A stretch of DNA of 45,813 nt from an uncultured bacterium (GTDB lineage Bacteria > Fidelibacterota > Marinisomatia > SCGC-AAA003-L08 > TS1B11): NCBI GenBank assembly GCA_964543925.1, contig CAZJBG010000003.1, positions 1-45,813 on the forward strand, given 5' to 3'. Shown here piece by piece: positions 9,073 through 36,828 of the stretch. A program made the translations under genes and the position numbers. The notes beneath the pieces were generated by a model. It saw nothing but the letters and a program-made list of their open reading frames with translations. It was not told the DNA's origin and ran no database searches. Each line of letters starts with the position of its first letter. Within the stretch, counting starts at the first letter, position 1.

Positions 9073-9084
9073 CCCGGTGAATGG

Positions 9085-13514: not shown

Positions 13515-14822
13515 TCACCGGTACTGGACCTCAATGGGACTGTTGAGTTCAGCGATCACCCGATCCAGATAGATTTGGAAACCGTCCAGGGAAGTGATGC
13601 CGTTGGGCTCCTGGTCCCAGGCGGCCAGAAAATAGTAGTCGAGCTGTCCTGCTGCGGGTCGCAGAAGCACCAAGTGGCTGATCTCATCTTCGGCGAGGGA
13701 ATTCAAATCCGCCTGCCGATAGACAATCGCAATCCCCAGATTTTCGTCATTCATGGTCATTTTGCCATAGAGTCCCAAATAGTCCCATGCTCCACTTCCC
13801 CTGCTATGGGGAGAGACAACTCGGCCGGCCTCATGTTTGGCAAGGCCTGTCGCCAGAATCAGGTCACCATCCCCCGATATCCGGACCGAATGCTGGGTCA
13901 ACCGGCTGCCTGCAATGATGCTGAGCTCCGAGGTCAAATCGTAAACGCCGGCTCCAGCGCGCCAGTTATAATAACGGGTTCGTATGAGTGACTGCACCGG
14001 CCCGGTAGATATGATCTCACTGACCACGCTGTCAGTATTGGCGACCATCTCAACGGCGCCATTGTGCCAGAGACCTATAGACCCCACACCCATGGATTCG
14101 CCAACCTGGAAGATGTCCATGCCCCAAGGTGCCGACTCATGGTAGGAATCGAATCCATCCTGACCAACATCCTGCAACACCATATCCGTGGTCAATTTGC
14201 CAAAGATATCCGTGGCGTTACGCTGGTCGAGGTAGAACCGGTAGCCGACCTTGTCCGACTCCCAACCCGGACCCTCATAGCGCAGGAAGTTGTTATGGTC
14301 CCGGTGACCGGGGGGTAAGGTTGACCTTTTGACATTCTCAAATTTTCCGCCGGTATATACGCCATCCACAAGGGTGGCGCCTACTTTTTGCGATAGTTCG
14401 GCCTGAGTTCTTGGGGCATATTTGCGGTGGCGAGCACCCGAAGCGGCATAGCGAACCGTTATCGATTTTATTTCATGGGCCCCGAAGTGGGACACGAACA
14501 CCAGTTGATCAACCTGGCCGTCGTCATCGGCATCGACGCCCTGACTCGGCAGTTCCGTGGCCCCGTCCATGATCACGAACGCCTGTGGATTAAACTGGCT
14601 ATGGTGCTCCAATATGTCGATGACCCCGAGTCGAATGGCCGCATCTGATCTCGCGGCCGGACTTGGGTTGGTCAGAGTCACATTAAAGGACTCCGGGTAG
14701 ATCGTTTCGATGTCAGGGCCCGTGCAACCAGTCAGGATGATCATGCCGGCACAGAGCGCACTAAGACGAAATAGCATATTCATGGATGAAGGTCCTTTCC
14801 GATATCGCTGCTGAGTATTCAT
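13515..14822 (-). CDS. Lipoprotein, DUF4861-like (family commonly found next to kduD/kduI)
   Basis: Lipobox MIILTGC. LRYEGPGWESDKVGYRFYLDQRNATDIFGK matches my recollection of the DUF4861 core. ATGA overlap with the kduD stop. The true start may be the ATG at 14783. Confidence 0.7.
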   Translation of the reverse strand: MNTQQRYRKGPSSMNMLFRLSALCAGMIILTGCTGPDIETIYPESFNVTLTNPSPAARSDAAIRLGVIDILEHHSQFNPQAFVIMDGATELPSQGVDADDDGQVDQLVFVSHFGAHEIKSITVRYAASGARHRKYAPRTQAELSQKVGATLVDGVYTGGKFENVKRSTLPPGHRDHNNFLRYEGPGWESDKVGYRFYLDQRNATDIFGKLTTDMVLQDVGQDGFDSYHESAPWGMDIFQVGESMGVGSIGLWHNGAVEMVANTDSVVSEIISTGPVQSLIRTRYYNWRAGAGVYDLTSELSIIAGSRLTQHSVRISGDGDLILATGLAKHEAGRVVSPHSRGSGAWDYLGLYGKMTMNDENLGIAIVYRQADLNSLAEDEISHLVLLRPAAGQLDYYFLAAWDQEPNGITSLDGFQIYLDRVIAELNSPIEVQYR

Positions 14823-15598
14823 CGCGCCATCCAGCCGCCATCGACCAGCAGAACATGGCCGTTGACGTAGTCGGATGCTTTTGATGCCAGAAAGACGGCG
14901 GCACCCTTAAGGTCCTCCGGCTGGCCCCATTTTCCCGAGGGTATTCGTACGCTTATCGCTTCAAATCTGGCGCGGTCATCCCGTAGCGCCTGGGTGTTGT
15001 CGGTGGCGAAATAGCCGGGCGCAATGGCATTCACCTGCACGTTATGCTGCGCCCACTCATTGGCCAGGGCCTTGGTGAGCTGGGCCACCCCCCCTTTACT
15101 CGCCGCGTAAGATGGCACAGTGATACCCCCCGAAAAACTGAGCAGTGACGCGATATTGATAATCTTGCCCCGGCGCCTAGCGACCATTTCCTTGCCCACA
15201 TCCCGGCAAAGCTGAAAGACCGCTGTCAGGTTGGTTTGCATCACGACCGCCCAATCATCATCCGAGTGCTCGACAGCGGGAGTTCGACGGATTATTCCGG
15301 CATTGTTGATTAAAATATCGATGCTGCCCAACTGGTCCATCGTATTGGCAATCGCATTCTGAATGGCTTTCGGCTGGCTCACATCGCAGGCAACTTTCAG
15401 GAATTTACGCCCCTGTGCCAGGACAGCCTCAGCTGTTTCGCTGAGGTTATCCTCGCGGGTGGCAATTCCGGCGACATCGGCACCAGCCTCTGCCATGGCC
15501 GCAGCCATGGCTTGACCCAGACCGCGGCTCGCCCCTGTCACCAGCGCAACCTTGCCATCCAGGCGAAAGCGATCCAGGATTGATGGCCGGTCGTTCAT
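14819..15598 (-). CDS. kduD: 2-dehydro-3-deoxy-D-gluconate 5-dehydrogenase (SDR)
   Basis: FRLDGKVALVTGASRGLG, NNAGI, YAASKGGV and APGYFATDNT are the classic KduD-type SDR pattern. 4-nt overlaps on both sides. Confidence 0.9.
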   Translation of the reverse strand: MNDRPSILDRFRLDGKVALVTGASRGLGQAMAAAMAEAGADVAGIATREDNLSETAEAVLAQGRKFLKVACDVSQPKAIQNAIANTMDQLGSIDILINNAGIIRRTPAVEHSDDDWAVVMQTNLTAVFQLCRDVGKEMVARRRGKIINIASLLSFSGGITVPSYAASKGGVAQLTKALANEWAQHNVQVNAIAPGYFATDNTQALRDDRARFEAISVRIPSGKWGQPEDLKGAAVFLASKASDYVNGHVLLVDGGWMAR

Positions 15599-17373
15599 TT
15601 GGCGCCTGCTTCCGATTGGAGTTTGGCAATTTCGACAGCAGCCAGCATAACAGACCCCACACCGCGTGGATCGTGGAGGAACCTGTCACGATCATAGTAG
15701 AACTGAAGATTGTCGCCGACGCCGGTTCCACGAGTGATGTCGTGGACCAAACCGTCCCTATCGACTTTGCCTCGCAGGCCATCCCAACCACGGAGGGCCG
15801 CTTCGCGGTAGACTTCATCCAGCCATCCCAGGCGCACCCCGCGGGCCAACCCTAACACAAACATGCTGGTGCATGAAGTCTCTTCAAAGGAATCATGATA
15901 GTCCAGCACCTGGTGCCACATACCGCTGGTAGGATCTTGCTGGGCAACCAGTCCCTCCATGTGGCGCCGGAAGTAGGCGAGTATCTGCTGATAGTCCCGA
16001 TGGTCCTTCGGCAAGTACTCGAGGGCCTCCGACATGGCCCAGACAGACCAGCCGTTGGCGCGACCCCAGTAGGCGAGTGAGCGTTCCTGAGACTGACTGA
16101 ACCAGGTGTGCTTCAGCAGTCCCTTTTCCGCCACAAACAGCAGGTCGGTAAACTGAATGAGCTGGCGGGCGGCATCATCATAGTAGGCACGGTCCCCAGT
16201 CATCTGGCCCATGCGCAACAAAAAGGGTACGCTCATGAAAAGGTCGTCCGCCCAGACGGTATAGGGCTCGGGCTCGGGCCGGGCAAACGTTCCGTCGGCG
16301 AGTCGCAGCTGCTGATGAGATACATATTCGTCAATTTCTTCAATGAGCGGCCGGAACTGTTCACCCTCACCCCGGCGCAACAGTTCAAGGTAGGGCAGGG
16401 CGGGAGCGCCGGAATCATCGAGCATGGATCGGCGGAAAATCCGGTGATAGCTGCCGCGGTAGGCGTGACGGACCTCGTACTGCCACTTGAAATAATCGTA
16501 GTTGGCGATGGTGAAATCACAGTAGCGCTTTACAAAGTCGCCAATGCGCTCATCTCCCAGGTAATCGGCGACAGCCAGCATGCCCAGCATGGTCGCGCCG
16601 TGGGCGTAATGCCAATCATTTGTTGTCCGTCGCCGGTGTTCAACCTTGAGCTGCCACAAATCCTCCGTTGGCGGGGTAAGCCATGGATATCCAAAGTCCG
16701 CCGCTGTGCCGATTGCTCCCATGAGGTCTACCGCCGTTTGTGCCGGGATCGGACCTTGAACCAACCAGTGCGCGCCGCCTCGCTCGGGGGCAAATGATGC
16801 GAGTGAAAAAGTGACGCCCTCCTCAGGCTCACCGCGATTGTCGAGGGGCCGGAGGAAAAATATCCATGGATCGCTCTGAGTTGTGACCTCGACCACGACC
16901 CGATTGCTGCCCTTCCGGAGATCGACCGTAAAGCTATCCTGAAAGGAGAACATGCCGTAGCCTACCTCAGGGACGGCAGGCACTCGGGGCTGATCCCAGC
17001 TGTACGCCAAATCGTCATTGATCCAGATGTTGACCTGGTCGCTTGCGCTGACGCCAAAGGCGATGCTGGAATCGTATGCGCTCTCAATGGATGATACGGC
17101 GATGGCGGTCGCCGGTCCCGACGTACCGATGATGCGCCGGAAATCGACAAATTCCACACCTTGTACCGGTTCCTGCGGCACACGCTCGAATTCGAATGAA
17201 ACGCTATTGATGACCTGCCCGGCGACCGCCGTGGCGATCTCCGCTGGCGTTCGCGTATCGGGCTGCGGCGCGCAAGACCCGCCTAGGACCAGCAGACCCA
17301 GGGCGATAATCGATAGGGGATAGGGAAGACGGGGGCCGCGATTTATCAGCGTGCGAATAACCATGCTAAACAA
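15595..17373 (-). CDS. Unsaturated rhamnogalacturonyl/glucuronyl hydrolase (GH105/GH88, PF07470-type) with an N-terminal beta-sandwich module
   Basis: Lipobox LVLGGSC. The catalytic region has WHYAHGATMLGML, YWGRANGWSVWAMSEAL, GMWHQVLD and ETSCTSMF. The extra N-terminal domain spans roughly aa 55-177 (16843-17211). Confidence 0.9.
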   Translation of the reverse strand: MFSMVIRTLINRGPRLPYPLSIIALGLLVLGGSCAPQPDTRTPAEIATAVAGQVINSVSFEFERVPQEPVQGVEFVDFRRIIGTSGPATAIAVSSIESAYDSSIAFGVSASDQVNIWINDDLAYSWDQPRVPAVPEVGYGMFSFQDSFTVDLRKGSNRVVVEVTTQSDPWIFFLRPLDNRGEPEEGVTFSLASFAPERGGAHWLVQGPIPAQTAVDLMGAIGTAADFGYPWLTPPTEDLWQLKVEHRRRTTNDWHYAHGATMLGMLAVADYLGDERIGDFVKRYCDFTIANYDYFKWQYEVRHAYRGSYHRIFRRSMLDDSGAPALPYLELLRRGEGEQFRPLIEEIDEYVSHQQLRLADGTFARPEPEPYTVWADDLFMSVPFLLRMGQMTGDRAYYDDAARQLIQFTDLLFVAEKGLLKHTWFSQSQERSLAYWGRANGWSVWAMSEALEYLPKDHRDYQQILAYFRRHMEGLVAQQDPTSGMWHQVLDYHDSFEETSCTSMFVLGLARGVRLGWLDEVYREAALRGWDGLRGKVDRDGLVHDITRGTGVGDNLQFYYDRDRFLHDPRGVGSVMLAAVEIAKLQSEAGAK

Positions 17374-17796: not shown

Positions 17797-19299
17797 TTAA
17801 CGCATGAGTAACATCTTGCGTGTCTGTTGGAATCCTTCAGATTCGAGGCGGTAGAAATAGACACCGCTACTAACTGAATTTCCCTCTGAGTCCAGGCCTC
17901 TCCATGTGGCTGTATGGGCGCCTGCGTGTTGGTTGCCATTCACCAGGCGGGCAACCTCCTGGCCCAGCAGGTTGTAGATGGCCAACTGGACATCAGCGGC
18001 ACGTGTTAGATCGTATCTAATGACCGTTGAAGGGTTAAAGGGATTAGGGAAGTTCTGTGCAAGACTGAACCTGTCAGGAACGCCTTTGAGAGCTTCCATA
18101 ATTTCCAGAGTATGCCCCGTCCAATTACGGTCACCCAGTACCCCGTTGTCAGTTGCACCCGTGAAGGAAACTTGGGATTTGTAACCTAAATCCAAGTCTG
18201 CCAGCGCGATAGTGTCCAGATCTGGAAAAGTCGCAGCTACGTCTGGAGTGTTCCACCAGGTTGCGATGTTTCCGACGGGCGACGGATGTCCGGCGATGAA
18301 AGCGATGCCATCGACTATGTTGGTAGCGTCAGTGCCATAGCCGGGACTGAACGGTTCCAGGGCCATCACGCTGTCGGGATATGCAGCGGCGATACCCGGA
18401 TCGTTATAGGTATTGTTGTTGGTGATGGTCACCGTCTGGGTGACGCCATCGGCCAACAGGGTTGAGTCCGAAAGCGTATCCACTACGACCTGATAGAACT
18501 CCAGGGTGTCCTGACCCAGGAAACCGACGTTGACGGCCAGATTGTTGGTGTATTCAAGCTCGATAATTTCACCGAACTCGGCCACACGCCGTCCGGTGTT
18601 GATAATCGTATTGTGATCGAACTTGGCGTACTTGATCCAGCCGCCGCCATCACGCAGAATGCGACTACCGAAATTGTACCACGTATTGTCCACAGACACC
18701 AGGGAATCAATATGATTCCCACGATCGTCAAAGCCACGACCATTGTTGTAATCAGTCAGGACATGGCTGATGATCGAATTGGTGATGAAAACACTGACGC
18801 CACTGACGTCAAAACGGAAGATAGTCTGGGCCGATCTATCCAGGTGGCAGTCATCAATACGAATATCAACATCGGCGGCACTGATTCTAAACATCCGGGT
18901 GGGCTTACCACCCAGCTCGTCTACGTTGGTAACGTACAAGCCCTTGAGGGTGACATCCCCTCTGACTCGGAATGCTCTTGCGCCGGCCCCGCCTGAGGGT
19001 ACGCCAGGGATCAGTTTGGGCCGCACGGTGTAGCCAGTTGCCGCTACGATGGTGATCGGGAATGAATATTCCAGGCTCCCGTCAAGCAGGTAGATGCCCC
19101 CGCTTTCCAATTCGTAGACCGTGTTGGTATCAACTTGCGCGCCGGCAGCGGTTGTATCGCCACTGATGGCCGTGTTAAGCGTGCCAAATCCTTGCGCAAC
19201 CTGGACGACTCTCTGGGCCGCAGCAGGTGTGGCGAGTCCGATGACCAGGGCCGCCATAGCCAGGATTGTGGCACCTATGTACCTGTTAGCATCTTTCAT
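17797..19299 (-). CDS. Secreted right-handed beta-helix (pectin-lyase-fold) protein with a T9SS C-terminal sorting domain
   Basis: Signal peptide ...ATPAAAQ. Repetitive beta-helix-like segments (VTLKGLYVTNV, IRIDDCHLD, VFITNSIIS, FDHNTIINT). The C-terminal LAQNFPNPFNPSTVIRYDL...VQLAIYNLLGQEV...GVYFYRLESEGFQQTRKMLLMR is Por_Secre_tail-like. Confidence 0.85.
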   Translation of the reverse strand: MKDANRYIGATILAMAALVIGLATPAAAQRVVQVAQGFGTLNTAISGDTTAAGAQVDTNTVYELESGGIYLLDGSLEYSFPITIVAATGYTVRPKLIPGVPSGGAGARAFRVRGDVTLKGLYVTNVDELGGKPTRMFRISAADVDIRIDDCHLDRSAQTIFRFDVSGVSVFITNSIISHVLTDYNNGRGFDDRGNHIDSLVSVDNTWYNFGSRILRDGGGWIKYAKFDHNTIINTGRRVAEFGEIIELEYTNNLAVNVGFLGQDTLEFYQVVVDTLSDSTLLADGVTQTVTITNNNTYNDPGIAAAYPDSVMALEPFSPGYGTDATNIVDGIAFIAGHPSPVGNIATWWNTPDVAATFPDLDTIALADLDLGYKSQVSFTGATDNGVLGDRNWTGHTLEIMEALKGVPDRFSLAQNFPNPFNPSTVIRYDLTRAADVQLAIYNLLGQEVARLVNGNQHAGAHTATWRGLDSEGNSVSSGVYFYRLESEGFQQTRKMLLMR

Positions 19300-19387: not shown

Positions 19388-22216
19388 CTAAAAATTAAAC
19401 CTGAATCCAAGGTCTGTCGACCATCCGAAAAACTCCTCGCGAGTGGGGAACGATTGCACGCTGAGAAAGGTGCTCTCTGATGTGTTTGAGATATTATTCA
19501 GGTTCAGGTAAATAGAGAATCCCTTCGAGATTCTCTGCTGCAGCGCAATATCCCAGCGGGTGAATGCGGCAGTAAAACCATCACCTTCGATGACCCTGCC
19601 GACCGTACCCAAAGAGCTCCCCTGGAACACTGCGGAAACTCTCCCGGTAAACCCGCCTAGGTCATAGCCCAACGTAAAGTTACCAATGTAGTTGACTTGG
19701 CCCGGCATGCGGCCTGTTCGAAAGGTGTCAATAACGGTGGGCGAAAATGGCGGATCGGGGCTCCGGGGGCCTATGAGGAACAAGGGGTAGAATGTTTCCG
19801 ACTCCATCTGGCTATAGTTGGCATACAGCACAATCCCACTGAGCAGGCCCGGCAGGAATTTGAAATTTGTCTGTACTTCAACTTCCCAACCCGTGACGGT
19901 TGATGCCCTATCGGTGTTGACCGGTTCGGTAAGGCTGAAGCCGTTGAATTCACCGCCCTGGACACGGCTGTTCCGAATGTAGTCAATATTTTCCAATTCC
20001 TTATAAAACATTCCCAGTGTGAACAGCCCGAGCCGATTGTAAAGGGACCAGAATATGTCGTAGTTCCAAACCTGGGTATGTTTCAGTTCCGGATTACCTT
20101 GCTCGATGGTTGATTCTCCCCGGGCAACCCGGCGCCAAGGCACCAGGTTAAAATAGTTGGGACGCGAGAGGGTTTTAGTGGCCGCCAGACGAAGATCTGT
20201 CCAGCTTGCCAGCCGATACCTAAGATGTACCATGGGCAGCAGGTCAATGAAATCCTGGCCCCCAGTTGTGTCCGTTAGCCCTGAGATAGAAGCTGCGCCC
20301 TCATCATCGATAAATGGGTTGCCGAATATCGAGCGATAATTATTAACAGTTCGCTCAAACCGTACACCCGGCATGAACATGAGCCGTTCCCCCAGTTTGA
20401 GTTCTACCATGGCATACTGGGCGTATATGGTTTCCCCGGCTTCATAATCGTCAATATCCACCGTTGGATCCAGGATATACAGGTCCTCCCCGGGGGCACG
20501 ATAAGTTTGCAGAAAATCATTTAGTTTGTCGCGGTCCAGGAGGGGGTCAATCAGATAACGGCCGTTGAGAAACTCGTCCCCCAAAACATCTTGATCGGTA
20601 AAGTTGGAAATCCTGACTTTTCTGTCACTGGTAAGAGACCACTGCCCCGTTGTATCTGCGGCTCCAAGATCATCAATACCAAAATGAGAGGTCCAATAAC
20701 GGGTATTGTCCCGCTCCCTGTCCTTGAAACGCTGCTTAAGGCCCAACTTGAGTTTACCCGCCAGGAAGCGGCCCAATTTGAACGGCACGGAGAAATCCAT
20801 CTGGGCCGTAACATCCCGGTCAATCACGAGGGAGGAGTCAAACAAGCTGTCCTTGAAAAACGTATTCTCAAGAACATTCTTGGCCCCCTGCGGAATCAAC
20901 TCCGGCCCTTGATTTTCAATAAGGTCGTTGTAGAAGGGGTCCAGCTCTCTGAACCGTGCGGTGTGGGAGAAAGGTATATCCTGTTGAGATGTGGATGAAG
21001 AGAGTCGCCAGCCCAGGTTAAGAGCCCCCAGTTGGTGCTTGCCACTCACATTATGGGTCAATAGATGGTTGGTGATATCCCTGTCGCGCAGATCATATTC
21101 CACATAAAATGACCCCAAGCGATACCGCTTGCGGCGCCTCAGGTCATTGCGATCTGTACGGCCCCAGAAGGTAGTATAAAGGAGGGCATGATCACCCCAG
21201 CTGTAGTCGAGGGCGATGGAGGCGCCGAAACGCTCACGGATTTCCAGTCGATCACCCAGGTTCAAATTATTCACCCGGATTTCGGTATCTTCCTCGGTTA
21301 CCAGGACAAGATAGCCTGCGTCGAGGAGGTCTGAACTGCGATTGGCGCGCTGCACTGAGCCAGTTGCCACAATTCCCAATCTATCTGAAAATAGGCGGTT
21401 ACTGGCGCTGAAACTGCCCTTGTACTGGCCGTATTCCTGTTCGTGAGAATTGTAGCCGGTCTGGAGGCGCGTCGTGGTTTTTAAGCCAGCGGGCGCCTTC
21501 CTGATAACAAAATTGACGGTGCCGCCCACGGCATCTGCATCCATATCGGGAGTCAGGGCCTTGAAAACCTCGATGCCCGCCAGAAGCTCGGGGGAGATCA
21601 TGCTCAGGTCCACGGACCGGTCTTCGGGATCGGTGGAGGGGATGCGCTCGCCATTGACCGTGATGGAATTGAACTTTGGCGACAGGCCCCGGATCACCAC
21701 CTTGGTTCCCTCCCCGGCGTCCCTTTCAATCGAAATGCCAGGCAGCCGCCCCAAAGATTCGGCGGCGTTTTGGTCGGGCAGCTCCTGAATTCTATCTGCT
21801 GATACGACATTGACGATCGTATTGGAGGCCAGCTGCTGATTGATGGCCTGGGCCTGCCCCGCTAACTGAGCCGTTACGACAACTTCCTGGCCTGCAACCA
21901 CTTCGAAGGCCAGCTCTACATTCTGTTGGATATCCCGGTCCTCAACAATAGTAATGGGGAGTGAAGTCGCTTTGTACCCTATGTAGGAGACGAGCATCGT
22001 ATAGTCACCCGCCGGTATCCCGGGAATGCGGTAGACCCCGTCCCTATCCGCAGCACTGCCAAAGGCGGTTCCACTCAAAACGATATTCGCTCCCGGCAAC
22101 GAATTTCCGTTGGTCGCATCGCGGATAGTGCCTGACAGATTGCCTGCTGCCACACTACTGACCGATGTCGCGATTAAAATCGCCCCAAATTTCAGAGCAG
22201 GTGCATGGAATGCCAT
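19388..22216 (-). CDS. TonB-dependent outer-membrane receptor with an N-terminal carboxypeptidase-regulatory-like domain
   Basis: Start moved to the ATG at 22214-22216 (MAFHAPALKFGAILIATSVSSVAA signal). GTIRDATNGNSLPGANIVLSG..DGVYRIPGIPAGDYTMLVSYIGY is the CarbopepD_reg domain. The plug has LPGISIERDAGEG..VVIRG. The protein ends FRFNF with a terminal aromatic residue. Confidence 0.9.
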   Translation of the reverse strand: MAFHAPALKFGAILIATSVSSVAAGNLSGTIRDATNGNSLPGANIVLSGTAFGSAADRDGVYRIPGIPAGDYTMLVSYIGYKATSLPITIVEDRDIQQNVELAFEVVAGQEVVVTAQLAGQAQAINQQLASNTIVNVVSADRIQELPDQNAAESLGRLPGISIERDAGEGTKVVIRGLSPKFNSITVNGERIPSTDPEDRSVDLSMISPELLAGIEVFKALTPDMDADAVGGTVNFVIRKAPAGLKTTTRLQTGYNSHEQEYGQYKGSFSASNRLFSDRLGIVATGSVQRANRSSDLLDAGYLVLVTEEDTEIRVNNLNLGDRLEIRERFGASIALDYSWGDHALLYTTFWGRTDRNDLRRRKRYRLGSFYVEYDLRDRDITNHLLTHNVSGKHQLGALNLGWRLSSSTSQQDIPFSHTARFRELDPFYNDLIENQGPELIPQGAKNVLENTFFKDSLFDSSLVIDRDVTAQMDFSVPFKLGRFLAGKLKLGLKQRFKDRERDNTRYWTSHFGIDDLGAADTTGQWSLTSDRKVRISNFTDQDVLGDEFLNGRYLIDPLLDRDKLNDFLQTYRAPGEDLYILDPTVDIDDYEAGETIYAQYAMVELKLGERLMFMPGVRFERTVNNYRSIFGNPFIDDEGAASISGLTDTTGGQDFIDLLPMVHLRYRLASWTDLRLAATKTLSRPNYFNLVPWRRVARGESTIEQGNPELKHTQVWNYDIFWSLYNRLGLFTLGMFYKELENIDYIRNSRVQGGEFNGFSLTEPVNTDRASTVTGWEVEVQTNFKFLPGLLSGIVLYANYSQMESETFYPLFLIGPRSPDPPFSPTVIDTFRTGRMPGQVNYIGNFTLGYDLGGFTGRVSAVFQGSSLGTVGRVIEGDGFTAAFTRWDIALQQRISKGFSIYLNLNNISNTSESTFLSVQSFPTREEFFGWSTDLGFRFNF

Positions 22217-22378
22217 CAATCTGCAGTTAACCTCCCCTTGCGAATTCGCCCGATCAAGTCTGAAGCAGGTGCTGACGGCCAAAAGGGGTCGACAAAAGCG
22301 ACCCCGACCCTAAAACTATGGTCTTTTTGAAGTTTGATGAACAAACCCCCTGACTGTTGTAACTGATCTGCGTTAATT

Positions 22379-22409
22379 TACGTGGTATATCAAGTATACG
22401 CATCACGTA
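22379..22409. promoter_or_regulatory. Nested inverted repeat in the divergent TonB-receptor / kduI control region (candidate operator)
   Basis: TACGTG-GTATA-TCAAG-TATAC-GCAT-CACGTA. The outer 6-bp arms are at 22379-22384 and 22404-22409. The inner 5-bp arms are at 22385-22389 and 22395-22399. It lies about 160 nt from each divergent start. Confidence 0.3.
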
Positions 22410-22566
22410 GCACAATTGCCAAGCCCTTTCAGGTCAATCGCTAACAGGATGGCGCAATGTCCGTCCGACAATTTGTATATGCTCTTTTACCGATTGCCGC
22501 CAGAGACAATTAAATTATATCGGTATCCAGGATAAACAAGTACCTGCTTAATAGAGGAAGATGATC

Positions 22567-23397
22567 ATGGAGATGCGCCAACTGCCCGATCAGTCCAGCT
22601 TTAAACGACTTGGCACAGAAGAGATAAGGGCGACATTTTTAGTGGATAATCTCTTCGTGCCGGGGGCAATCAATCTGAATCATTTCGACTACGAACGGGC
22701 CGTCCTGGGCTCGGCTGTGCCTACGGCTCATGCTCTGGTCCTTGAGGCGCCGGATATATTTCGCGCAGAATATTTTACGGAGCGCCGGGAGCTAGGTATC
22801 ATGAATCTTGGCGGCGCGGGCCAGGTCCTCGCCGATGGCGATCCGTTCGACATGGCCAAACGCGACTCGCTCTACATTGGCCGGGGTACCCAGCAGATCG
22901 AGTTCAGCAGTGAGGACAGCCAGAACCCGGCTCAGTACTATATCGTGAGCTACCCCGCGCATCAGCCGTATCCCAATCGCCAGATAAAAGCGACCGATAT
23001 CGAGCCTATGGAGATCGGCAGTAAACAAGATTCAAATGAGCGCTCAATTTATCAGGCCATTATTCCCGGGAAAATAGATAGCGGACAGTTGGTGATGGGA
23101 TTCACCGAGCTGTCGACGGGTAGCGTCTGGAATACGATGCCTGCCCATCGACATGTGCGCCGGATGGAAGTCTATCTCTACTACGATCTGCCTGGGGATG
23201 CCGTCGTGATGCACCTGATGGGTCAGCCGGATGAAACCAGGCACATCATGGTCCGTGAGAAGCAGGCGGTTATCTCACCCAGTTGGTCGCTCCATTCGGG
23301 TGTCGGGACCCATAACTACGGCTTTGTCTGGGCCATGGGTGGCGAAAATCAGGACTACACGGACATGGATGCAGTGGCCATGGCCGAATTGCGTTAA
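22567..23397 (+). CDS. kduI: 5-dehydro-4-deoxy-D-glucuronate isomerase
   Basis: MEMRQLPDQSSFKRLGTEEIRATFLVDNLF parallels the E. coli KduI N-terminus (MDVRQSIH...LRNEFLV). The length is close to 278 aa. GAGGAAG at 22554-22560 favours the ATG at 22567 over 22561. Confidence 0.9.
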   Translation: MEMRQLPDQSSFKRLGTEEIRATFLVDNLFVPGAINLNHFDYERAVLGSAVPTAHALVLEAPDIFRAEYFTERRELGIMNLGGAGQVLADGDPFDMAKRDSLYIGRGTQQIEFSSEDSQNPAQYYIVSYPAHQPYPNRQIKATDIEPMEIGSKQDSNERSIYQAIIPGKIDSGQLVMGFTELSTGSVWNTMPAHRHVRRMEVYLYYDLPGDAVVMHLMGQPDETRHIMVREKQAVISPSWSLHSGVGTHNYGFVWAMGGENQDYTDMDAVAMAELR

Positions 23398-23410
23398 GTG
23401 AGGTGCTAGA

Positions 23411-24544
23411 ATGACCCCTCGAGAGCGAGTATTAGCGGCCATGCACATGCAAAAGCCGGACCGTGTCCCCGTCATGTGCCAGCTTTCCATTGGCCATATG
23501 CTGCAGCAGCTCGATGTATCGGCAAGCGAGTTTTGGTTTGATGCCGCCACTTTCGCCGATGGGCTGGTTCAGCTGCGCAAGACCTACAATTTCGACGGCA
23601 TATTGGTCAGCCTCCACGGGCACGGGAAAAATTGGCGCGATGACCTGCGCGATTTCAGCCGGGATGGGGAGCGTGAAATCCTCACATTCGATGACCGGAA
23701 ATTGACTTTTGGCCGCGACGATTTGCCTGAGGTGGAGTATCTCGGGGATCAACCTCTGGTCATGTTGGAAGATATTGTGCCGGGTGACCTCCCGGATGTT
23801 ATTGATTATATCCCGGTTTCCTATGGCCTTCACTATCACCTTGATACCCAGAACAATTTCGAGATATTCAAGCTCTTGTCTGACAGAGTCGGAGATACCT
23901 ACTCAATCCACGGCGAGGTCACGTCCCCGTTTGATTATTTCCTCGACCTCCTTGGGTATGAAAACGGCCTCATCGCCCTCTATGATGATCCCGATAAGTG
24001 CAAAGCCATATTGCAGAGGTATACCGAGGGTATCGCCGCCCTTGCTGAGCAGATGTGCCGGGAAAATATCGATGCGATCAAAATGTCTTCGCCCTTTGCA
24101 GGGATGGGATTTATCTCACCTGATCATTACCAGGAATTCATTGTCCCTTATGAGAGTCAAATCTACCAAACCATCACAAATGCCGGAAAGCAGGTCTACA
24201 TCCACACCTGCGGTGCCATTAATGATCGCCTGGAGGCCATGCAAGGTTCAGGCGCCTCCGGCCTGGAGTGCCTCGATCCGGCTCCCCTTGGGAATGTCGA
24301 TCTTGGGGAGGCCATTGAGCGCATTGGCAAGCATATGTTTATCAAGGGCAATCTCGATTCCGTCAATATGTTGCTCCAGGGCAGCGATGAGGAGGTCCTG
24401 GCTACGGTGAAGGAAAGCATAGCCACGGGACAGACTGCAGCCGGTTATATTTTGAGCACGGCTTGCGCGGTGGCCCCTTATGTGAAAAAGGAGCGCCTGC
24501 AACTGCTCAGCACGCTGGCCAGGGAGCACGGCAACTACGCATGA
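23411..24544 (+). CDS. URO-D superfamily methyltransferase (MtaA/CmuA-like, corrinoid-dependent)
   Basis: MTPRERVLAAMHMQKPDRVPVM is a typical MtaA/URO-D N-terminus. IHTCG (HxC) plus the later STAC cysteine resemble the MtaA zinc ligands. It starts 13 nt after the kduI stop. Confidence 0.85.
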   Translation: MTPRERVLAAMHMQKPDRVPVMCQLSIGHMLQQLDVSASEFWFDAATFADGLVQLRKTYNFDGILVSLHGHGKNWRDDLRDFSRDGEREILTFDDRKLTFGRDDLPEVEYLGDQPLVMLEDIVPGDLPDVIDYIPVSYGLHYHLDTQNNFEIFKLLSDRVGDTYSIHGEVTSPFDYFLDLLGYENGLIALYDDPDKCKAILQRYTEGIAALAEQMCRENIDAIKMSSPFAGMGFISPDHYQEFIVPYESQIYQTITNAGKQVYIHTCGAINDRLEAMQGSGASGLECLDPAPLGNVDLGEAIERIGKHMFIKGNLDSVNMLLQGSDEEVLATVKESIATGQTAAGYILSTACAVAPYVKKERLQLLSTLAREHGNYA

Positions 24545-25431
24545 CACACGGCCTGTTTGAAGGTTTTTCACAGCGTAAAGTGTGGCTCTTTGACGGGGGC
24601 ATGGGCTCTCTGTTGCAAAAGCGTGGTTTACCGCCAGGTGGGTGCCCGGATGAGTATAACCTCATCGAGCCTGAGATCGTGCGGTCGATCCACCGGGCGT
24701 ATGTCGAGGCAGGCTCCGATATCATTCAGACCAACACCTTCGGGGCCAATCCGATTCGTCTTGAGATGTACGGACTGGCTCCCCGATCGAAAGAGATAAA
24801 TGCCCGGGCGGTAGTCCTTGCGAGGGGGGCGGCGAATGACAAAGCCAAGGTTATCGGTTCCATGGGGCCGCTAGGCGAGATGATTGAGCCGTTGGGCGAG
24901 GTGACCCGCGCCGCCGCATACGATGCCTTCCGCATCCAGGCAAGGGGACTTGTCGAGGCTGATGCCATCAATATTGAAACGGCCATGTCATTGGATGAAG
25001 TTGCCATTGCCCTCGAAGCCGTACGCTCGGTGACCAGCCTGCCCATCTGCGTATCCATGACATTTAACACGACACCCAAGGGGCAGTTCACCATGATGGG
25101 TGAATCGGCTACCGACTGTGTCCTGGCACTTGAAAAGCAGGATGTAAACGTCATCGGAGCCAACTGCGGTGATGGGGTGGAGCAGGTCATCGAGGTCCTT
25201 CGCGAGATGGCCCTGAGCACCGATCTGCCCTTACTTGCGAAGCCGAATGCGGGAATCCCCGCCATCACCGGGGGGGAGGAGGTCTACCCGGAAGACGCGA
25301 CCAGCTTCAGCAAGAAGATGAGCCGGGTTGTATCTGCAGGGGCAGCGATCATTGGAGGGTGCTGCGGCACGACCCCTGATCATATCCGCAATCTTAGGTT
25401 TCTGGCCGATGAAATCAATGCTGCTGCATAA
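24541..25431 (+). CDS. Stand-alone homocysteine S-methyltransferase domain protein (MetH N-terminal-module-like, PF02574-type)
   Basis: The ATG at 24541 overlaps the upstream stop (ATGA). LFDGGMGSLLQKRG, IIQTNTFGAN, GANCG and IIGGCCGTTPDHI follow the Hcy-binding module pattern, including the Cys...CysCys zinc site. The upstream extension to 24463 was rejected. Confidence 0.85.
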   Translation: MTHGLFEGFSQRKVWLFDGGMGSLLQKRGLPPGGCPDEYNLIEPEIVRSIHRAYVEAGSDIIQTNTFGANPIRLEMYGLAPRSKEINARAVVLARGAANDKAKVIGSMGPLGEMIEPLGEVTRAAAYDAFRIQARGLVEADAINIETAMSLDEVAIALEAVRSVTSLPICVSMTFNTTPKGQFTMMGESATDCVLALEKQDVNVIGANCGDGVEQVIEVLREMALSTDLPLLAKPNAGIPAITGGEEVYPEDATSFSKKMSRVVSAGAAIIGGCCGTTPDHIRNLRFLADEINAAA

Positions 25432-25446
25432 GACGCCGCGCAACCT

Positions 25447-26082
25447 ATGAAACAGACACTGGATGCCATCGCCGACCGGATCATTTCAGGCGACCATGTT
25501 GAAATACTGCCCCTGGTGGAAAAAGCATTGGCCGATGGGGCATCTGCCAGTACGGTTCTCAATGGTGGTCTGTTGAAAGGCATGGGGGTCGTTGGGGTGC
25601 GATTTCGCGACGGCGACATGTTTTTACCGGAGGTGCTCCAATCAGCCCGAGCCATGAAACTTTCCATGAAAATATTGGAGTCGCTGTTTTTGGCTGGAGA
25701 GCATGCCTTTAAGGGTAAGATGCTCATCGCCACGGTGAAGGGGGATATCCATGATATTGGCAAAAACCTGGTGTCGATCATGCTGCAGGGCAACGGATAT
25801 GAAGTGATCGACCTGGGCATCAATTGTACCACCGATAAATTTCTGCAGGCCCTCGCTGATGAAAAGCCGGATGTTTGCGGTCTGTCGGCCATGTTGACCA
25901 CCACCATGCTGGCCATGCAGAGCACCGTTGCCGCAGTCAAGCAGGTCTACCCAAAGCAGTTGGTTATTGTCGGCGGTGCCCCGGTTAACCGAAAATTTGC
26001 CCAGGAAATCGGCGCCGATGATTATGGACATGATGCCATGAGCGCCGTGGAAATATTGAATGCAATGCTAGATGGAGGCTAA
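25447..26082 (+). CDS. Corrinoid (cobalamin-binding) protein, MtaC/MtbC-like
   Basis: N-terminal helical cap domain, then ATVKGDIHDIGKNLV (the DxHxxG base-off/His-on motif), then SAMLTTTM and GGAP, typical of B12-binding Rossmann domains. 211 aa. Confidence 0.9.
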   Translation: MKQTLDAIADRIISGDHVEILPLVEKALADGASASTVLNGGLLKGMGVVGVRFRDGDMFLPEVLQSARAMKLSMKILESLFLAGEHAFKGKMLIATVKGDIHDIGKNLVSIMLQGNGYEVIDLGINCTTDKFLQALADEKPDVCGLSAMLTTTMLAMQSTVAAVKQVYPKQLVIVGGAPVNRKFAQEIGADDYGHDAMSAVEILNAMLDGG

Positions 26083-26173
26083 GGGCCGTAGCCTGTTCCG
26101 CCTGGTCGTAGGGAACGAGGTTGGCCCTTCACCACATCATTGATTGACCGTTTGGGAATGTGGATTAGAGCAG

Positions 26174-26259
26174 ATCGTCAAAGCAATGTGAGCTGCTTGG
26201 TCTAAAACTAAGAGACACATTGCACGCTTCCAATGTTTAGCTGATGCCTCCTTGAAAGC
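26174..26259 (+). repeat. Copy A of an ~86-nt intergenic repeat (contains an 8-bp inverted repeat GCAATGTG...CACATTGC)
   Basis: Hand alignment to 31059-31144. The first 18 nt (ATCGTCAAAGCAATGTGA) are identical. Overall identity is roughly three-quarters with two or three 1-nt gaps. It lies 189 nt upstream of the adaptor gene ATG, in the same orientation. Confidence 0.6.
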
Positions 26260-26447
26260 TGCCCTACTTCTTCAGAACCATCCTTCGCTGAACTCAGGAC
26301 AAGCCTTGATGACTTTTGTGAACGATGGAGTCATGAGACGCGCAATCTATTCTCCAGAGGGCGCCTTCCGTCATTCCCCCCGTAATCGCCGTTAAAATTT
26401 TTAATCGCGGACAACCTAATCTTATTTGTTTAAGTCTCACAGGTGCA

Positions 26448-27701
26448 ATGGACAGGATTATACCCAAAAAGCGCTGGACACCTAAGCGGATAGCCGCCCT
26501 TACGCTTGGGGGGATTTTCATTGCGACCACCAGTTATGCCCTCCTTCTGGGCGACAGTGGCAGTAAAGTCAGGGTCTCAAGCGAGCGTCTCACCCTCTCC
26601 ACCGTATGGGACGGAGAGTTCCAGGAGTTCATCCCGGTCAACGGCACTATCGTCCCCATTCGTACCCTCTATCTTGATGCTATAGAAGGGGGCCGGGTGG
26701 AAAAGCGATATCTCGAGGCGGGGAGCTACGTCCAGGAAGGAGACCCAATTCTCCAGCTGTCCAATACCAATTTGCTACTGGATATCATGTATCGCGAGGC
26801 GGAGCTGTTTCAACAAAGCAACAACCTACGCAATACCCAGCTGGCCATGGAACAGAACAGCCTGACTCTACAGTCGATCCTGCTTGAGCTCGATTACAAA
26901 CTTCTCACCGCCCGACGCAATTTCGAGCGCAGCAGGCAGCTCATGGAGAAAAATCTCATCGCATCCCTTGAATTTGAAGAGTCAGGCGACAGGTACAACT
27001 ACCTCACAAGCAGCCGGGCCCTTACCATGCAGAGCCACAAGCAGGATTCCATTTTCCGTACAACCCAGATCAAGCAGCTCCAGACCTCCCTGAAGCGGAT
27101 GGAGGACAATCTCAAGCTGGTGAAGCAGAACCAGGACAATCTACTCCTTCGCGCACCGGTCTCGGGTCACCTGACTTCCCTCAATGCGGAGATCGGGGAG
27201 TCGAAGGTTCGTGGAGAGCGGCTGGGGCAGATAGACATACTCGATGGGTTCAAGGCCCGTATCCTCATTGATGAGCACTATATCAACCGCGTCCGGATGG
27301 GACAGAATGCCACCGTTCCTTTGGGAGCGAAAAGCTATCAGATGACCGTGGTGAAAATCTTCCCGGAAGTGCTCAACGGCGAGTTCCAGATCGAGATGGT
27401 GTTTGATGACGACGTACCGCCCGACATTCGCCGCGGACAGGCCGTTCGCGCCAGGCTCGCTCTGGGTGGGCTTTCCAAGGCCCGCCTCATGGCTCGGGGC
27501 AGTTTTTTCAACAAAACCGGAGGCCAGTGGGTCTATGTCGTGGAAGAGGATAGCAAAACAGCCTCACGCCGGTCCATTCGACTGGGCAGGCAGAATCAGG
27601 ATGAGTACGAAATACTCAGCGGGCTGGAGGCGGGGGAGCGGGTCATCGTCTCGTCTTACGATGCCTTTGGAGAGTTTGACAAGGTCGTGTTGAGCGACTG
27701 A
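26448..27701 (+). CDS. HlyD/MacA-family periplasmic adaptor (membrane-fusion protein)
   Basis: N-terminal membrane anchor, a long coiled-coil-like central region (QQSNNLRNTQLAMEQNSLTLQSILLELDYKL...) and a C-terminal beta-barrel-like region. It is followed by a MacB-type ATPase and permease. Confidence 0.85.
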   Translation: MDRIIPKKRWTPKRIAALTLGGIFIATTSYALLLGDSGSKVRVSSERLTLSTVWDGEFQEFIPVNGTIVPIRTLYLDAIEGGRVEKRYLEAGSYVQEGDPILQLSNTNLLLDIMYREAELFQQSNNLRNTQLAMEQNSLTLQSILLELDYKLLTARRNFERSRQLMEKNLIASLEFEESGDRYNYLTSSRALTMQSHKQDSIFRTTQIKQLQTSLKRMEDNLKLVKQNQDNLLLRAPVSGHLTSLNAEIGESKVRGERLGQIDILDGFKARILIDEHYINRVRMGQNATVPLGAKSYQMTVVKIFPEVLNGEFQIEMVFDDDVPPDIRRGQAVRARLALGGLSKARLMARGSFFNKTGGQWVYVVEEDSKTASRRSIRLGRQNQDEYEILSGLEAGERVIVSSYDAFGEFDKVVLSD

Positions 27702-33777: not shown

Positions 33778-34242
33778 GGCCCCCTTCGGTTGACCGAGAC
33801 CGGAAGCCGTCAAAGCCGGAATTGAAAGTCTTTTTCATATTCAATCGCAATGCTTAATATCAGCATCACCAGATTCAAGAGCGGACAAGATGATGGAATC
33901 GTGGGATTGATGTGCATTCGCTAAATATCCATGTGATGCCCATCACGGCCGTTGTCCCGGAATTGGGTTAGTATCGTCCCTTTAGGTTAGGCACCATCAA
34001 CGATCTCTGGCTGGGGTGGACAACATGCGATTACCTGACAATTGGCTGATTCCGGCGGCAATGTCCGCATATTGGACATTTGCTCCCTGCCCAATCTTCT
34101 CCCGATCCCAGCAATCCGTCGCTGTTTTGGACTGGGAGTCCAGGGGTATACCCTTTTACGAAATGGCCCCATTGACCGACCGATTACGCTCGGTGGATGA
34201 TAACCAGGTTATTCGCGTGTCCTTGCGAACGGGTAATAATCA

Positions 34243-35337
34243 ATGCTACTAGACGGTGTCATTGGAGGTTTGATAGCCCTCCTGCTTGCATGCCTGTTTA
34301 CGCCGCTGTTCTGCTTCATCGGGCTGAGGCTCAAAATGATGGATTACTCCGGTGGCCGCAAGTGGCATGGAACGCCAATTCCCAGCGTCGGAGGTCTAAT
34401 AATCATATTTTCGATTATCTTACCCCTGTTGTTATTTAGCGAACTCACACCGGCGATGATTGGACTCATTGTAGGGGGCGGGCTCATCATTGGCTTGGGT
34501 ATCATTGATGACATCAGAGGTGTACCCTATTACTTCAAGTTTGCAGTTCAGTTTCTCGCGGTGGTTCTGTTCCTCGTAATCTCAGGACAGCATGCCAAGC
34601 CGTTTACCATCGTAGGGTTCACGCTGGATTTGGGATATCTCTACTACCCGCTTGTCGTGATTTGGATGATGGGGATTATGAATGCCATAAACCTCATCGA
34701 CGGACTAGACTCCCTCGCTGGGGGCGTTAGTTTCATCATATTGGCAGTTTTTTCGATACTTCTTTATCTCGGCGGCCACACAGGGGGTTTTTTACTTTCG
34801 ACCATCGTGGCCGGTGCAACATTGGGTTTCCTGCGCAGTAATTTGCTCCCGGCCAGGGTCTTTCTGGGAGATTCAGGCTCCCTATTCCTTGGATTCATCG
34901 TGGGATCGTTAAGCGTTATTTACGGTTTTCAAAATGGGGATGCCTATTCGGTAACCCTGCCTGTACTGGTATTGTCCCTCCCTGTGCTTGATACCCTTTA
35001 CGTGATGGCATATCGGATCAGCCAGAACAAAAACCCATTCTTACCGGACCGGAACCACATCCACCATGTGCTGCTTCGCCGCGGTCTCCCGGAATTTCAT
35101 GTTGTCCTGATCATTTATATCATGACCTTATCATTTTGCATACTTGCCGGCCTGTCAACAGCCTTACCGAGTGGGCTCATTATCCTCCTGTTCCTTTCCC
35201 TAACCTTTGTAACGATCCTTTTACCCCGCCTCCAACCCCTATTGCGGCCCTTGGCGATTAGCCGCGCCTTTTCTCTGATTAATATCAGGATTGCCGCTTT
35301 CATCCTGAGGAGCTTGCGCTCCCCGTTGGGGCCGTAG
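34243..35337 (+). CDS. Polyprenyl-phosphate sugar-1-phosphate transferase, MraY/WecA family (GT4 transferase family)
   Basis: GGRKWHGTPIPSVGG, GIIDDIRG, NAINLIDGLDSLAGG and FLGDSGSLFLGF are hallmark WecA/MraY motifs. About 10 TM segments. Confidence 0.9.
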   Translation: MLLDGVIGGLIALLLACLFTPLFCFIGLRLKMMDYSGGRKWHGTPIPSVGGLIIIFSIILPLLLFSELTPAMIGLIVGGGLIIGLGIIDDIRGVPYYFKFAVQFLAVVLFLVISGQHAKPFTIVGFTLDLGYLYYPLVVIWMMGIMNAINLIDGLDSLAGGVSFIILAVFSILLYLGGHTGGFLLSTIVAGATLGFLRSNLLPARVFLGDSGSLFLGFIVGSLSVIYGFQNGDAYSVTLPVLVLSLPVLDTLYVMAYRISQNKNPFLPDRNHIHHVLLRRGLPEFHVVLIIYIMTLSFCILAGLSTALPSGLIILLFLSLTFVTILLPRLQPLLRPLAISRAFSLINIRIAAFILRSLRSPLGP

Positions 35338-35523
35338 CCAACGGGCGAGGCCCACGAATCTTAAACCAGGCCGATGGCGCATTTTTCGAGCAGTGGCCGC
35401 CAAGATGGTGAGGAGGCATCAATACTGCCTGAGTGCTGACCTCCGTCGCGCTATTGGGGGGAAGGGGCGATTGGCAAAAGTCATTGAAGGCCCGCAGGAC
35501 GCGTTCTACTCCCTGGGATAGTT

Positions 35524-36762: not shown

Positions 36763-36828
36763 AAAGTCTCTTCATGTTTATTGGACCATTCAGAATTGAT
36801 TAAAAAGGATCCAGGGGGGCACAGGGCC

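Follow-up and report, generated by a model that had tools for sequence, protein, structure and literature searches.

A uroporphyrinogen decarboxylase-superfamily protein coupled to a homocysteine methyltransferase and a corrinoid protein: a putative modular methyl-transfer system in an uncultured Fidelibacterota bacterium

We describe a trio of adjoining genes on contig CAZJBG010000003.1 (assembly GCA_964543925.1) of an uncultured bacterium of the Fidelibacterota. The analysed stretch, 45,813 nt (45.8 kb) long, is called the window throughout, and statements on gene content and absences refer to it. The trio encodes a protein of the uroporphyrinogen decarboxylase (URO-D) superfamily, a stand-alone homocysteine S-methyltransferase module (HcyMT) and a corrinoid protein, and it directly follows kduI, a gene of uronate catabolism. 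Given the intact motifs, the tight coupling of the genes and the recurrence of the trio elsewhere, we consider it reasonably probable that the three proteins form a modular corrinoid methyltransferase system, which would carry the methyl of a donor to homocysteine and thereby yield methionine. An earlier sequence-only reading had proposed a three-component corrinoid shuttle to homocysteine that is not simply a split MetH, and this proposal fits our comparative data, namely a conserved trio and relatives of HcyMT that usually sit with a non-pterin donor methyltransferase. The design principle of such systems is already known, and the novelty lies in a URO-D enzyme in the donor position of a known homocysteine and corrinoid sink. 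The URO-D protein is the least ordinary part of the locus.

The corrinoid trio and its proteins

The genes for kduI (22561–23397), URO-D (23411–24544, 377 aa), HcyMT (24541–25431, 296 aa) and the corrinoid protein (25447–26082, 211 aa) lie head to tail in the list of open reading frames (ORFs), all on the plus strand. The TAA of kduI at 23395–23397 is followed by a 13-nt spacer, GTGAGGTGCTAGA, which contains a ribosome-binding-like GAGGTG motif, and then by the URO-D ATG at 23411. An ATGA at 24541–24544 is both the URO-D stop and the HcyMT start, so that the two genes overlap by 4 nt, while HcyMT and the corrinoid ATG at 25447 are separated by a 15-nt spacer. This gene order, its spacers and its overlap, as well as the five motifs IHTCG, STAC, GANCG, GGCCGT and GDIHDIGKN, had been read from the sequence beforehand and were all found in place and intact.

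The URO-D protein is a member of its superfamily according to PF01208 (132.9 bits, cut-off 23.9; E = 1.8e-38), and its likeness to MtaA makes it a putative zinc methyltransferase. It scored below the cut-offs of the MtaA/CmuA models TIGR01463 (119.3 bits, cut-off 235.4) and PRK06252 (111.5, cut-off 244), with alignments limited to residues ~150–370, and it is not HemE, scoring 39.5 bits against a cut-off of 302.95 for the equivalog TIGR01464. MtaA of Methanosarcina mazei (4AY7) was nonetheless its best match in the PDB, both by sequence and by fold, and its AlphaFold2 model, with a mean predicted local distance difference test (pLDDT) score of 93, matched the structures of MtaA and HemE. In the alignment to 4AY7, IHTCG (aa 264–268, 24200–24214, plus strand) pairs with LHICG, and the cysteine of STAC (aa 349–352, 24455–24466, plus strand) pairs with that of APGCGIAP. 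These HxC...C positions are presumably the zinc ligands of MtaA, and His265, Cys267 and Cys352 are putative zinc ligands of the URO-D protein. All three residues were invariant in 32 orthologues, likewise Cys287 and an HGH motif. The clade is tight (50–75% identity), with members in Ignavibacteria, Melioribacteraceae, Kryptoniota, KSB1, Fidelibacterota/Marinimicrobia, many Bacteroidales and Chitinophagaceae.

In the UroD superfamily, His-Cys-Cys sites mark S- or Se-methyltransferases, whereas O-demethylases carry carboxylates in place of the cysteines (Kountz and Balskus preprint, PMC10418091). Therefore, with its invariant His-Cys-Cys site, URO-D would more likely use a methylated sulfur (or selenium) compound as donor than an O-methyl sugar. 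Among the donors that had been suggested from the sequence, the methylthio compounds gain from this comparison, while the O-methylated and methyl-esterified candidates become less favoured.

Two further assignments of the URO-D protein were rejected. A true decarboxylase acting on a uronate product was discounted in view of the invariant HxC...C, the low HemE score and the corrinoid gene found within 5 kb of the orthologue in 26/56 loci of the survey described below, and a folate-independent methionine synthase of the core-MetE or Mes type was discounted because MetE structures reached a template-modelling (TM) score of only about 0.5, MtaA was closer, and the Pfam family was PF01208.

HcyMT, a stand-alone counterpart of MetH module 1 that resembles MtgE, matched PF02574 with 236 bits (E = 1e-69). 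Its best PDB match was the homocysteine module of Thermotoga maritima MetH (1Q7M; 8e-47, 163 bits), whereas 5DML, of the MmuM type that depends on S-adenosylmethionine (SAM) or S-methylmethionine (SMM), was far weaker (3.7e-14, 56 bits). GANCG (aa 206–210, 25156–25170, plus strand) aligns with GINCS of 1Q7M, and GGCCGT (aa 272–277, 25354–25371, plus strand) is identical in both proteins. We take the aligned cysteines of 1Q7M to be the zinc cysteines of the MetH module; the expected cysteines of HcyMT hold up in this alignment, with Cys209, Cys274 and Cys275 as zinc ligands. The NCBIfam matches of HcyMT include the BHMT and YitJ types.

The corrinoid protein combines a cap and a Rossmann domain (PF02607, 71.8 bits; PF02310, 97.6 bits), and its best PDB match was the Moorella corrinoid protein 1Y80 (1e-49), followed by the B12 domains of MetH. 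Its GDIHDIGKN (aa 99–107, 25741–25767, plus strand), which contains the DxHxxG motif of base-off/His-on cobalamin binding, aligns with GDLHDIGKN of 1Y80. The protein reached the cut-off of none of the named NCBIfam corrinoid proteins, among them the MtgC, MtbC and MtaC equivalogs. When aligned to a short MetH, HcyMT and the corrinoid protein were 44% and 39% identical, and exactly the pterin module was left out. The pair would be a generic methyl sink into methionine.

The domain assignments made from the letters alone (PF01208, PF02574 and PF02607 with PF02310) were confirmed, and so was the lack of PF00809 in the ORFs of the window. Likewise, the reported absence of a pterin module, an MttB-type methyltransferase and an activase was upheld by tblastn and Pfam. 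A tblastn search of the whole window and a Pfam scan of all its ORFs of at least 150 aa both returned no homologue of pterin-binding (PF00809), MttB, MetH-reactivation or CobW proteins; Pfam also found no Ram/RACE-like ORF, and the window holds a single URO-D gene.

Conservation of the trio

We surveyed the URO-D protein in a scan of species-representative genomes, which gave 80 loci that were screened with the proteins of the window and those of two annotated loci (surveyed loci are cited by L numbers). Neighbours were counted within 5 kb of the URO-D orthologue at those 56 loci that had 3 kb or more of flank on both sides. A corrinoid protein was the commonest of the genes looked for (26/56), followed by a stand-alone MetH-type reactivation domain (PF02965; 21/56), a CobW-family GTPase (16/56) and a second URO-D paralogue (14/56), while HcyMT was found at 6 loci and kduI at none.

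The URO-D/HcyMT/corrinoid trio is conserved as a module: at least seven other loci have it, in two gene orders and with genes that overlap or nearly abut. A metagenome contig (L093) has an AmiA-like gene followed by URO-D, HcyMT and the corrinoid gene, in the order of the window and with trio identities of 64%, 57% and 64%. The contig of the closest URO-D relative (L175) probably carries the same order, given that its URO-D gene has the ATGA overlap and is followed by an ORF start, MSSTWFDG, resembling the N-terminus of HcyMT. In the second order, the corrinoid gene lies between URO-D and HcyMT (L045, L053, L054, L082 and L083, and L071 with a disrupted corrinoid gene); these loci belong to Ignavibacteria, Kryptoniota and Chitinophagaceae. 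Other metagenome relatives of the URO-D gene are solitary and stand beside a TonB receptor, a GH3 gene or an aldehyde dehydrogenase gene, and in Prolixibacteraceae the orthologue accompanies GFO/IDH and xylose-isomerase-like TIM-barrel genes.

The survey from the HcyMT side covered the 80 closest relatives in metagenome contigs (38–50% identity). A corrinoid protein adjoined the HcyMT relative in at least 54 of these loci, an MttB-family methyltransferase was present in 36 and a PF02965 reactivation protein in 44. The commonest arrangement, seen in many of L100–L174, joins an MttB-family gene (PF06253), the PF02965 activation protein, a corrinoid protein and HcyMT. About 10 of the 80 relatives are short MetH proteins with a pterin domain, and the five closest (L095–L099) are HcyMT–corrinoid pairs with no linked donor methyltransferase, one such pair lying ~117 kb from a URO-D orthologue on the same contig. 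The partners of the HcyMT clade are therefore varied. The four-gene MttB/PF02965/corrinoid/HcyMT cluster was very common in sediment and groundwater metagenomes, accounting for 36–44 of the 80 nearest HcyMT loci.

Several other arrangements around URO-D genes were observed during the surveys. Bacteroidales genomes (L003 at 6432–11146; L020–L031, L041 and others) carry a cluster of a corrinoid protein, a 467-aa URO-D protein, CobW, a reactivation domain and the URO-D orthologue. The 467-aa protein has a C-terminal thioredoxin-like domain and Phe-x-Cys...Cys at the aligned metal positions, and the NCBIfam matches of this fused domain and of CobW are families linked to selenoproteins. The cluster has no PF02574 or pterin gene, its shorter versions also lack the second URO-D gene, and it looks like a corrinoid methyltransferase system not yet described. 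In Mariniphaga sediminis (L002, 4147–12638), the URO-D orthologue lies in a rhamnose-type cluster with rhaM, RhaT, two GFO/IDH genes and a xylose-isomerase-like TIM-barrel gene, adjoined by a 414-aa URO-D paralogue with Asp-x-Asp...His at the aligned metal positions; no corrinoid protein is encoded within 10 kb.

An AmiA-like gene (PF07313) recurs in the Fidelibacterota/Ignavibacteria-like group, both upstream of URO-D (L004, L089, L093 and L178) and beside the HcyMT–corrinoid pairs of L095–L097 and L099. A PhyH-family Fe(II)/2-oxoglutarate dioxygenase gene is divergently adjacent to URO-D in L045 (9011–9838, minus strand), L083 (9038–9880, minus strand) and four other loci, and is among the commonest immediate neighbours (6/102). 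As pure speculation, this dioxygenase might offer an alternative that turns over the substrate of URO-D in an oxygen-dependent way.

Proposed mechanism

In the mechanism that we propose, the 211-aa corrinoid protein would cycle between Co(I) and methyl-Co(III), and HcyMT would activate homocysteine at its three-cysteine zinc site and take the methyl group from methyl-Co(III) to form methionine. URO-D would be the donor-side methyltransferase, loading the corrinoid in place of the pterin module of MetH or an MttB-family enzyme. MtsA demethylates methyl sulfides and methylates a thiol via a corrinoid protein; by similar chemistry, the likeliest class of donor for URO-D would be a methylated thiol or thioether, with methanol, a methyl ester or an O-methyl sugar as less likely substrates. 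The latter three are still to be considered, since MtaB, too, activates methanol at a zinc site with two cysteines. Reactivation of Co(II) would fall to an unlinked factor, and the best candidate would be a stand-alone MetH-type SAM-dependent activation protein, given that this protein is the usual companion of both the URO-D and the HcyMT clades. If co-transcribed with kduI beside a polyuronate locus, the system would probably be expressed during growth on that glycan.

Several observations weigh against this proposal. The URO-D protein falls below the curated MtaA/CmuA cut-offs and diverges in its N-terminal ~150 residues. At 21 of the 56 loci, none of the query genes was found near the URO-D orthologue, which is thus solitary in many genomes, so that its role need not always involve HcyMT. 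Conversely, the metagenome scan placed no URO-D gene beside any of the 80 closest relatives of HcyMT, which makes the pairing of URO-D and HcyMT a minority architecture. A pterin-binding partner may be encoded outside the window. An Rfam scan at gathering thresholds found only tRNAs and no SAM or cobalamin riboswitch in the window and 12 related loci, so that no such element ties the locus to methionine regulation. Finally, the presence of two thiol-type zinc enzymes in one system leaves the donor and acceptor sides ambiguous. The Mariniphaga paralogue, by its aligned Asp-x-Asp...His, raises the alternative that the URO-D orthologue is the thiol-methylating partner of an O-demethylase, and we therefore infer, rather than observe, which roles the two zinc enzymes of the window play.

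Comparison with known systems

Methionine-directed modular corrinoid systems have been recognised only recently, for glycine betaine in marine roseobacters and as MttB-type clusters in uncultured phyla. A split methionine synthase of roseobacters is reportedly also due to Price et al. in 2018. In the roseobacter MtgBCDE system, stand-alone homocysteine and corrinoid modules serve interchangeable methyltransferases, with genetic support (Mausz et al., 2025, PMC12478193). As in the window, MtgE, the homocysteine module, and MtgC, the corrinoid protein, are distinct proteins, the shared corrinoid protein linking catabolic demethylation to methionine. Unlike the window, the roseobacters use a pterin-binding MtgD, an MttB-family MtgB and reactivation by RamA and a DUF1638 protein, none of which the window encodes, and their system has no URO-D member. 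The cluster of an MttB homologue, HcyMT, a corrinoid protein and an activation protein has been proposed, as a proposal only, to be a methionine synthase with an unknown donor (Williams et al., 2022, PMC9324843). It resembles our locus in its sink, a stand-alone PF02574 protein with a cap-and-Rossmann corrinoid protein, and in the replacement of MetH module 2 by a non-pterin donor enzyme. However, that enzyme belongs to the MttB superfamily (PF06253) instead of the URO-D/MtaA group, and the window lacks a counterpart of its PF02965 activation protein.

With MetH itself, the window shares homologous homocysteine and cobalamin modules in MetH order, together with the zinc and DxHxxG motifs. It differs in that the modules are split into genes, the pterin and activation modules are absent and URO-D is translationally coupled upstream. 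The URO-D protein in turn shares its superfamily, its fold (TM 0.74/0.82) and its HxC...C zinc motif positions with MtaA, MtbA and MtsA of methanogens (4AY7), but it is only ~19% identical and lies below the family cut-offs, and its N-terminal third is divergent, with additional His and Cys residues that are invariant. Furthermore, its host is a bacterium of the FCB group, to which the T9SS domains in the window and the taxa of the homologues point, there is no coenzyme M context and the partner is a MetH-type homocysteine module.

MtaA-like enzymes with His-Cys-Cys sites are known from the Type 1 mlp clusters of non-methanogens, for which roles in S/Se-methyl metabolism and methionine salvage were proposed (PMC10418091). 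Those clusters also contain a corrinoid protein and no tetrahydrofolate methyltransferase (PMC10418091). In contrast to the window, which has one URO-D gene, a homocysteine module and no Ram/RACE, they carry two or three Mlps with Ram/RACE, are found mostly in Firmicutes and obligate anaerobes, and have no described PF02574 partner. The aryl O-demethylases of acetogens (MtvABC, OdmABCD) are three-component systems that likewise combine a URO-D-family methyltransferase I with a small corrinoid protein, 1Y80 being the best match of the one described here. However, their methyltransferase II binds pterin and methylates tetrahydrofolate, their activase is of the ATP-dependent RACE type, and the zinc sites of their methyltransferase I use carboxylates instead of two cysteines (PMC10418091). 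In the open-access papers that we searched, we found no description of a corrinoid-dependent sugar demethylase, of a URO-D, PF02574 and corrinoid system, or of this URO-D clade.

The locus thus joins a methionine-forming core to a different donor-side family, a distinct MtaA-like clade that is widespread among bacteria of the FCB group and has no characterised member. The substrate of URO-D would add a methyl source to bacterial one-carbon and methionine metabolism and to the B12 demand in sediments and guts. If the donor were a methyl sulfide, the system would bear on methanethiol and dimethyl sulfide turnover and on methionine salvage outside methanogens.

The kduI link and alternative explanations

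The donor had been traced to a glycan in the sequence-only reading, from the tight packing of the trio with kduI beside GH105/88, kduD and a TonB receptor. In the most viable alternative to a methylated sulfur donor, which we regard as unlikely, URO-D would act on a product of the adjacent polyuronate pathway, taking the methyl from an unsaturated uronate that is methyl-esterified or O-methylated, from some other O-methyl sugar or from methanol set free from it; the methyl group would be saved as methionine, and the demethylated uronate would pass to KduI and KduD. The arrangement itself speaks for such a link, as kduI ends 13 nt upstream of URO-D with no terminator between them, and the closest relative of the URO-D protein shares the adjacency (P0002/L175; 75% identity, on a 2.1-kb contig from another sample), with kduI, a 13-nt spacer, URO-D and the ATGA overlap as in the window. 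This was the only other case. kduI was adjacent to the URO-D orthologue in 0/80 loci of the species-representative genomes, none of the 80 metagenome loci around HcyMT relatives contained it, and in the next-closest trio (L093, 64% identity) an AmiA-like gene takes its position.

The kduI similarity of L175 (1–960) covers residues 66–278 only, with the first ~65 codons missing, and a frameshift breaks it in a TA run near nt 440; nucleotide homology starts at window position 22765, inside kduI. This copy is either a decaying gene or pseudogene, or an assembly artefact. Given its absence from 160 loci and the defective copy in L175, the adjacency of kduI is lineage-specific and gives no evidence for a coupling of methyl transfer to KduI chemistry; with 0/80 and 0/80 loci in the two surveys, the kduI link is weak, and a corrinoid-dependent demethylation tied to KduI and KduD has little support. 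The kduI gene (PF04962, 5.7e-25; NCBIfam equivalog NF002091, 393.4 bits, cut-off 250) encodes a 5-dehydro-4-deoxy-D-glucuronate isomerase and is functionally part of the divergent polyuronate locus. It is probably a lineage-specific passenger, the first gene of the putative operon and no component of the methyl transfer.

That divergent locus lies on the minus strand. It begins with a TonB-dependent receptor (19388–22282; Pfam Plug, TonB_dep_Rec and CarboxypepD_reg), which is followed by a 500-aa protein secreted by the type IX secretion system (T9SS; 17797–19299; Por_Secre_tail and FlgD_ig), a GH88/105-type hydrolase (15595–17373; Pfam), kduD (14819–15598; equivalog TIGR01832, 358 bits, cut-off 339), a gene of the DUF4861/BT3233 family (13515–14822; Pfam) and a NagB-like gene (12615–13472; Pfam), with GH20-like and xylose-isomerase-like genes beyond. 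The first ~410 residues of the T9SS protein had no domain assignment, and its AlphaFold2 model (pLDDT 84) is a right-handed beta-helix with the alginate lyase 7DMK of polysaccharide lyase family 6 (PL6) as best fold match (E = 2e-5). Its family counts 2719 matches at E <= 1e-5, in Ignavibacteria, Balneolaceae and Rhodothermales, and its gene directly adjoins the TonB receptor gene in the window, L074, L076 and L079, where it is placed like a SusD substitute or a surface lyase. The set of TonB receptor, PL6-like beta-helix protein, GH88/105 and kduD makes the neighbourhood a plausible locus for polyuronate uptake and catabolism.

A looser association of the URO-D clade with glycan-uptake genes does recur, and this part of the earlier claim about the donor is suggestively supported. 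Counterparts of the TonB receptor (47–52% identity), each with a gene for the PL6-like beta-helix T9SS protein, flank the URO-D operon in Melioribacteraceae, which has a GATase1-like gene and an SSF symporter gene where the window has kduI, together with a GntR/LacI-type regulator. GH28 and a GntP permease are encoded upstream in L083, and GH2 in L074. Pfam typing of the immediate neighbours at 53 URO-D loci without the reactivation cluster gave aldehyde dehydrogenase (7), PhyH (6), xylose-isomerase-like TIM barrel (5), GFO/IDH (5), DUF2264 (4), SSF (4), AmiA-like (4), GH78 (3), GH3 (2) and sulfatase (2). The Prolixibacteraceae context with GFO/IDH, xylose-isomerase-like TIM barrel, RhaT and rhaM points the same way, as does the second URO-D protein of Mariniphaga, whose Asp-x-Asp...His is of the carboxylate type attributed to O-demethylases (PMC10418091).

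This loose link is not independent evidence, given that related genomes share synteny and that the Melioribacteraceae loci in particular may have a common ancestry with the window. Many housekeeping contexts also offset it, about half of the orthologues standing with corrinoid, reactivation and CobW genes. Moreover, the locus of the window, with its GH88, NagB-like, GH20-like and PL6-like proteins, looks suited to a glycosaminoglycan or alginate instead of pectin, no pectin methylesterase or pectin-specific gene is present in it, and the invariant His-Cys-Cys site is of the S/Se type. In its strongest form, with URO-D, expressed together with the polyuronate uptake genes, as the first corrinoid-dependent, oxygen-independent demethylase for methyl groups derived from carbohydrate (a uronate, another sugar or released methanol) that feeds methionine, the idea seems to us rather improbable. 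Were the donor glycan-derived, it would bear on how anaerobes demethylate sugars, as an anaerobic counterpart to the P450 sugar demethylases in glycan degraders of the FCB group, and the URO-D clade at large, which comes with a MetH-type reactivation protein and CobW, would represent a family of catabolic methyltransferase systems not described so far.

It is quite improbable that HcyMT and the corrinoid protein are the core of an ordinary B12-dependent methionine synthase with its pterin module encoded elsewhere, to which URO-D would add an extra entry for a donor or an exit to a thiol. Separate homocysteine, corrinoid and pterin modules with one corrinoid protein serving several methyltransferases occur in Ruegeria and Phaeobacter (PMC12478193), and the two proteins align to short MetH minus its pterin domain. 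The HcyMT–corrinoid pairs of L095–L099, and the genome in which URO-D lies 117 kb from such a pair, show that the sink can stand without a linked donor methyltransferase. However, the translational coupling of URO-D to HcyMT and the retention of the trio in two gene orders indicate a dedicated partnership, and no pterin-binding gene lies within the 45.8 kb. This explanation overlaps with the modular system that we propose more than it excludes it.

We consider it very improbable that two unrelated functions are adjacent by chance, with URO-D and the corrinoid protein as an MtsA/MtsB-like methylthiol:thiol transferase that would need no HcyMT and HcyMT as an MmuM/YagD-type enzyme using SMM or SAM: many clusters do consist of URO-D, a corrinoid protein, a reactivation domain and sometimes CobW with no second methyltransferase (e.g. 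L034, L037–L039, L042 and L069), URO-D might perform both half-reactions as MtsA does, and stand-alone PF02574 proteins include cobalamin-independent enzymes (cf. the BHMT and YitJ-type matches in NCBIfam), but a corrinoid protein stands beside the HcyMT relatives in most loci, the likeness of HcyMT to the MetH module far exceeds that to the MmuM type, and gene overlap and conserved co-occurrence bind it to the URO-D and corrinoid genes.

Transcription signals and other features of the window

A consensus scan showed no terminator-like site at any of the three junctions, in agreement with the earlier remark that there is no hairpin between kduI and the trio. Scans for sigma-70 and terminator consensus sequences over 22200–26500 gave none above shuffle expectation and none at gene junctions, and are uninformative on transcript boundaries. 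The only two terminator matches, at 23780 and 24740, are both intracoding and not above shuffle expectation. The divergent intergenic region between the TonB receptor gene and kduI (22283–22560, 278 nt) is presumed to bear the promoters and has only one sigma-70-like match, which lies on the minus strand. Upstream of the operon there is no copy of the Bacteroidetes -7 motif TAnnTTTG, and in the window the motif is under-represented; this again is uninformative on transcript boundaries. At the other end, a GC-rich hairpin without a U tract (26077–26133, plus strand) straddles the corrinoid stop codon (26080–26082). Its minimum free energy of -28 kcal/mol is weakly significant (z = -1.74; 9/200 shuffles fold as well), and a 365-nt gap extends downstream of the corrinoid gene and the hairpin, which is a possible operon end.

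Downstream of the trio follow a MacAB-type exporter and then an exopolysaccharide cluster. The GC content of the window is ~55% outside two deviating regions, with 42–44% in the first 2 kb (1–2000) and 47–50% at 34001–37000, a region within the exopolysaccharide cluster (GT4, Wzz) that has a strong negative AT skew (-0.23 at 34–35 kb). An 866-aa ORF at 5153–7753 (plus strand), between sugar epimerase/dehydratase and Nramp transporter genes, had no Pfam or NCBIfam match. In the exopolysaccharide cluster, the stretch at 38054–41847 (minus strand) encodes a protein resembling heparinase II/III and a 714-aa protein in which a zinc-type alcohol dehydrogenase is fused to a GFO-IDH-MocA oxidoreductase. 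These genes are followed by several for SAM-dependent methyltransferases (42805–45285), so that the organism may itself produce a methylated polysaccharide.

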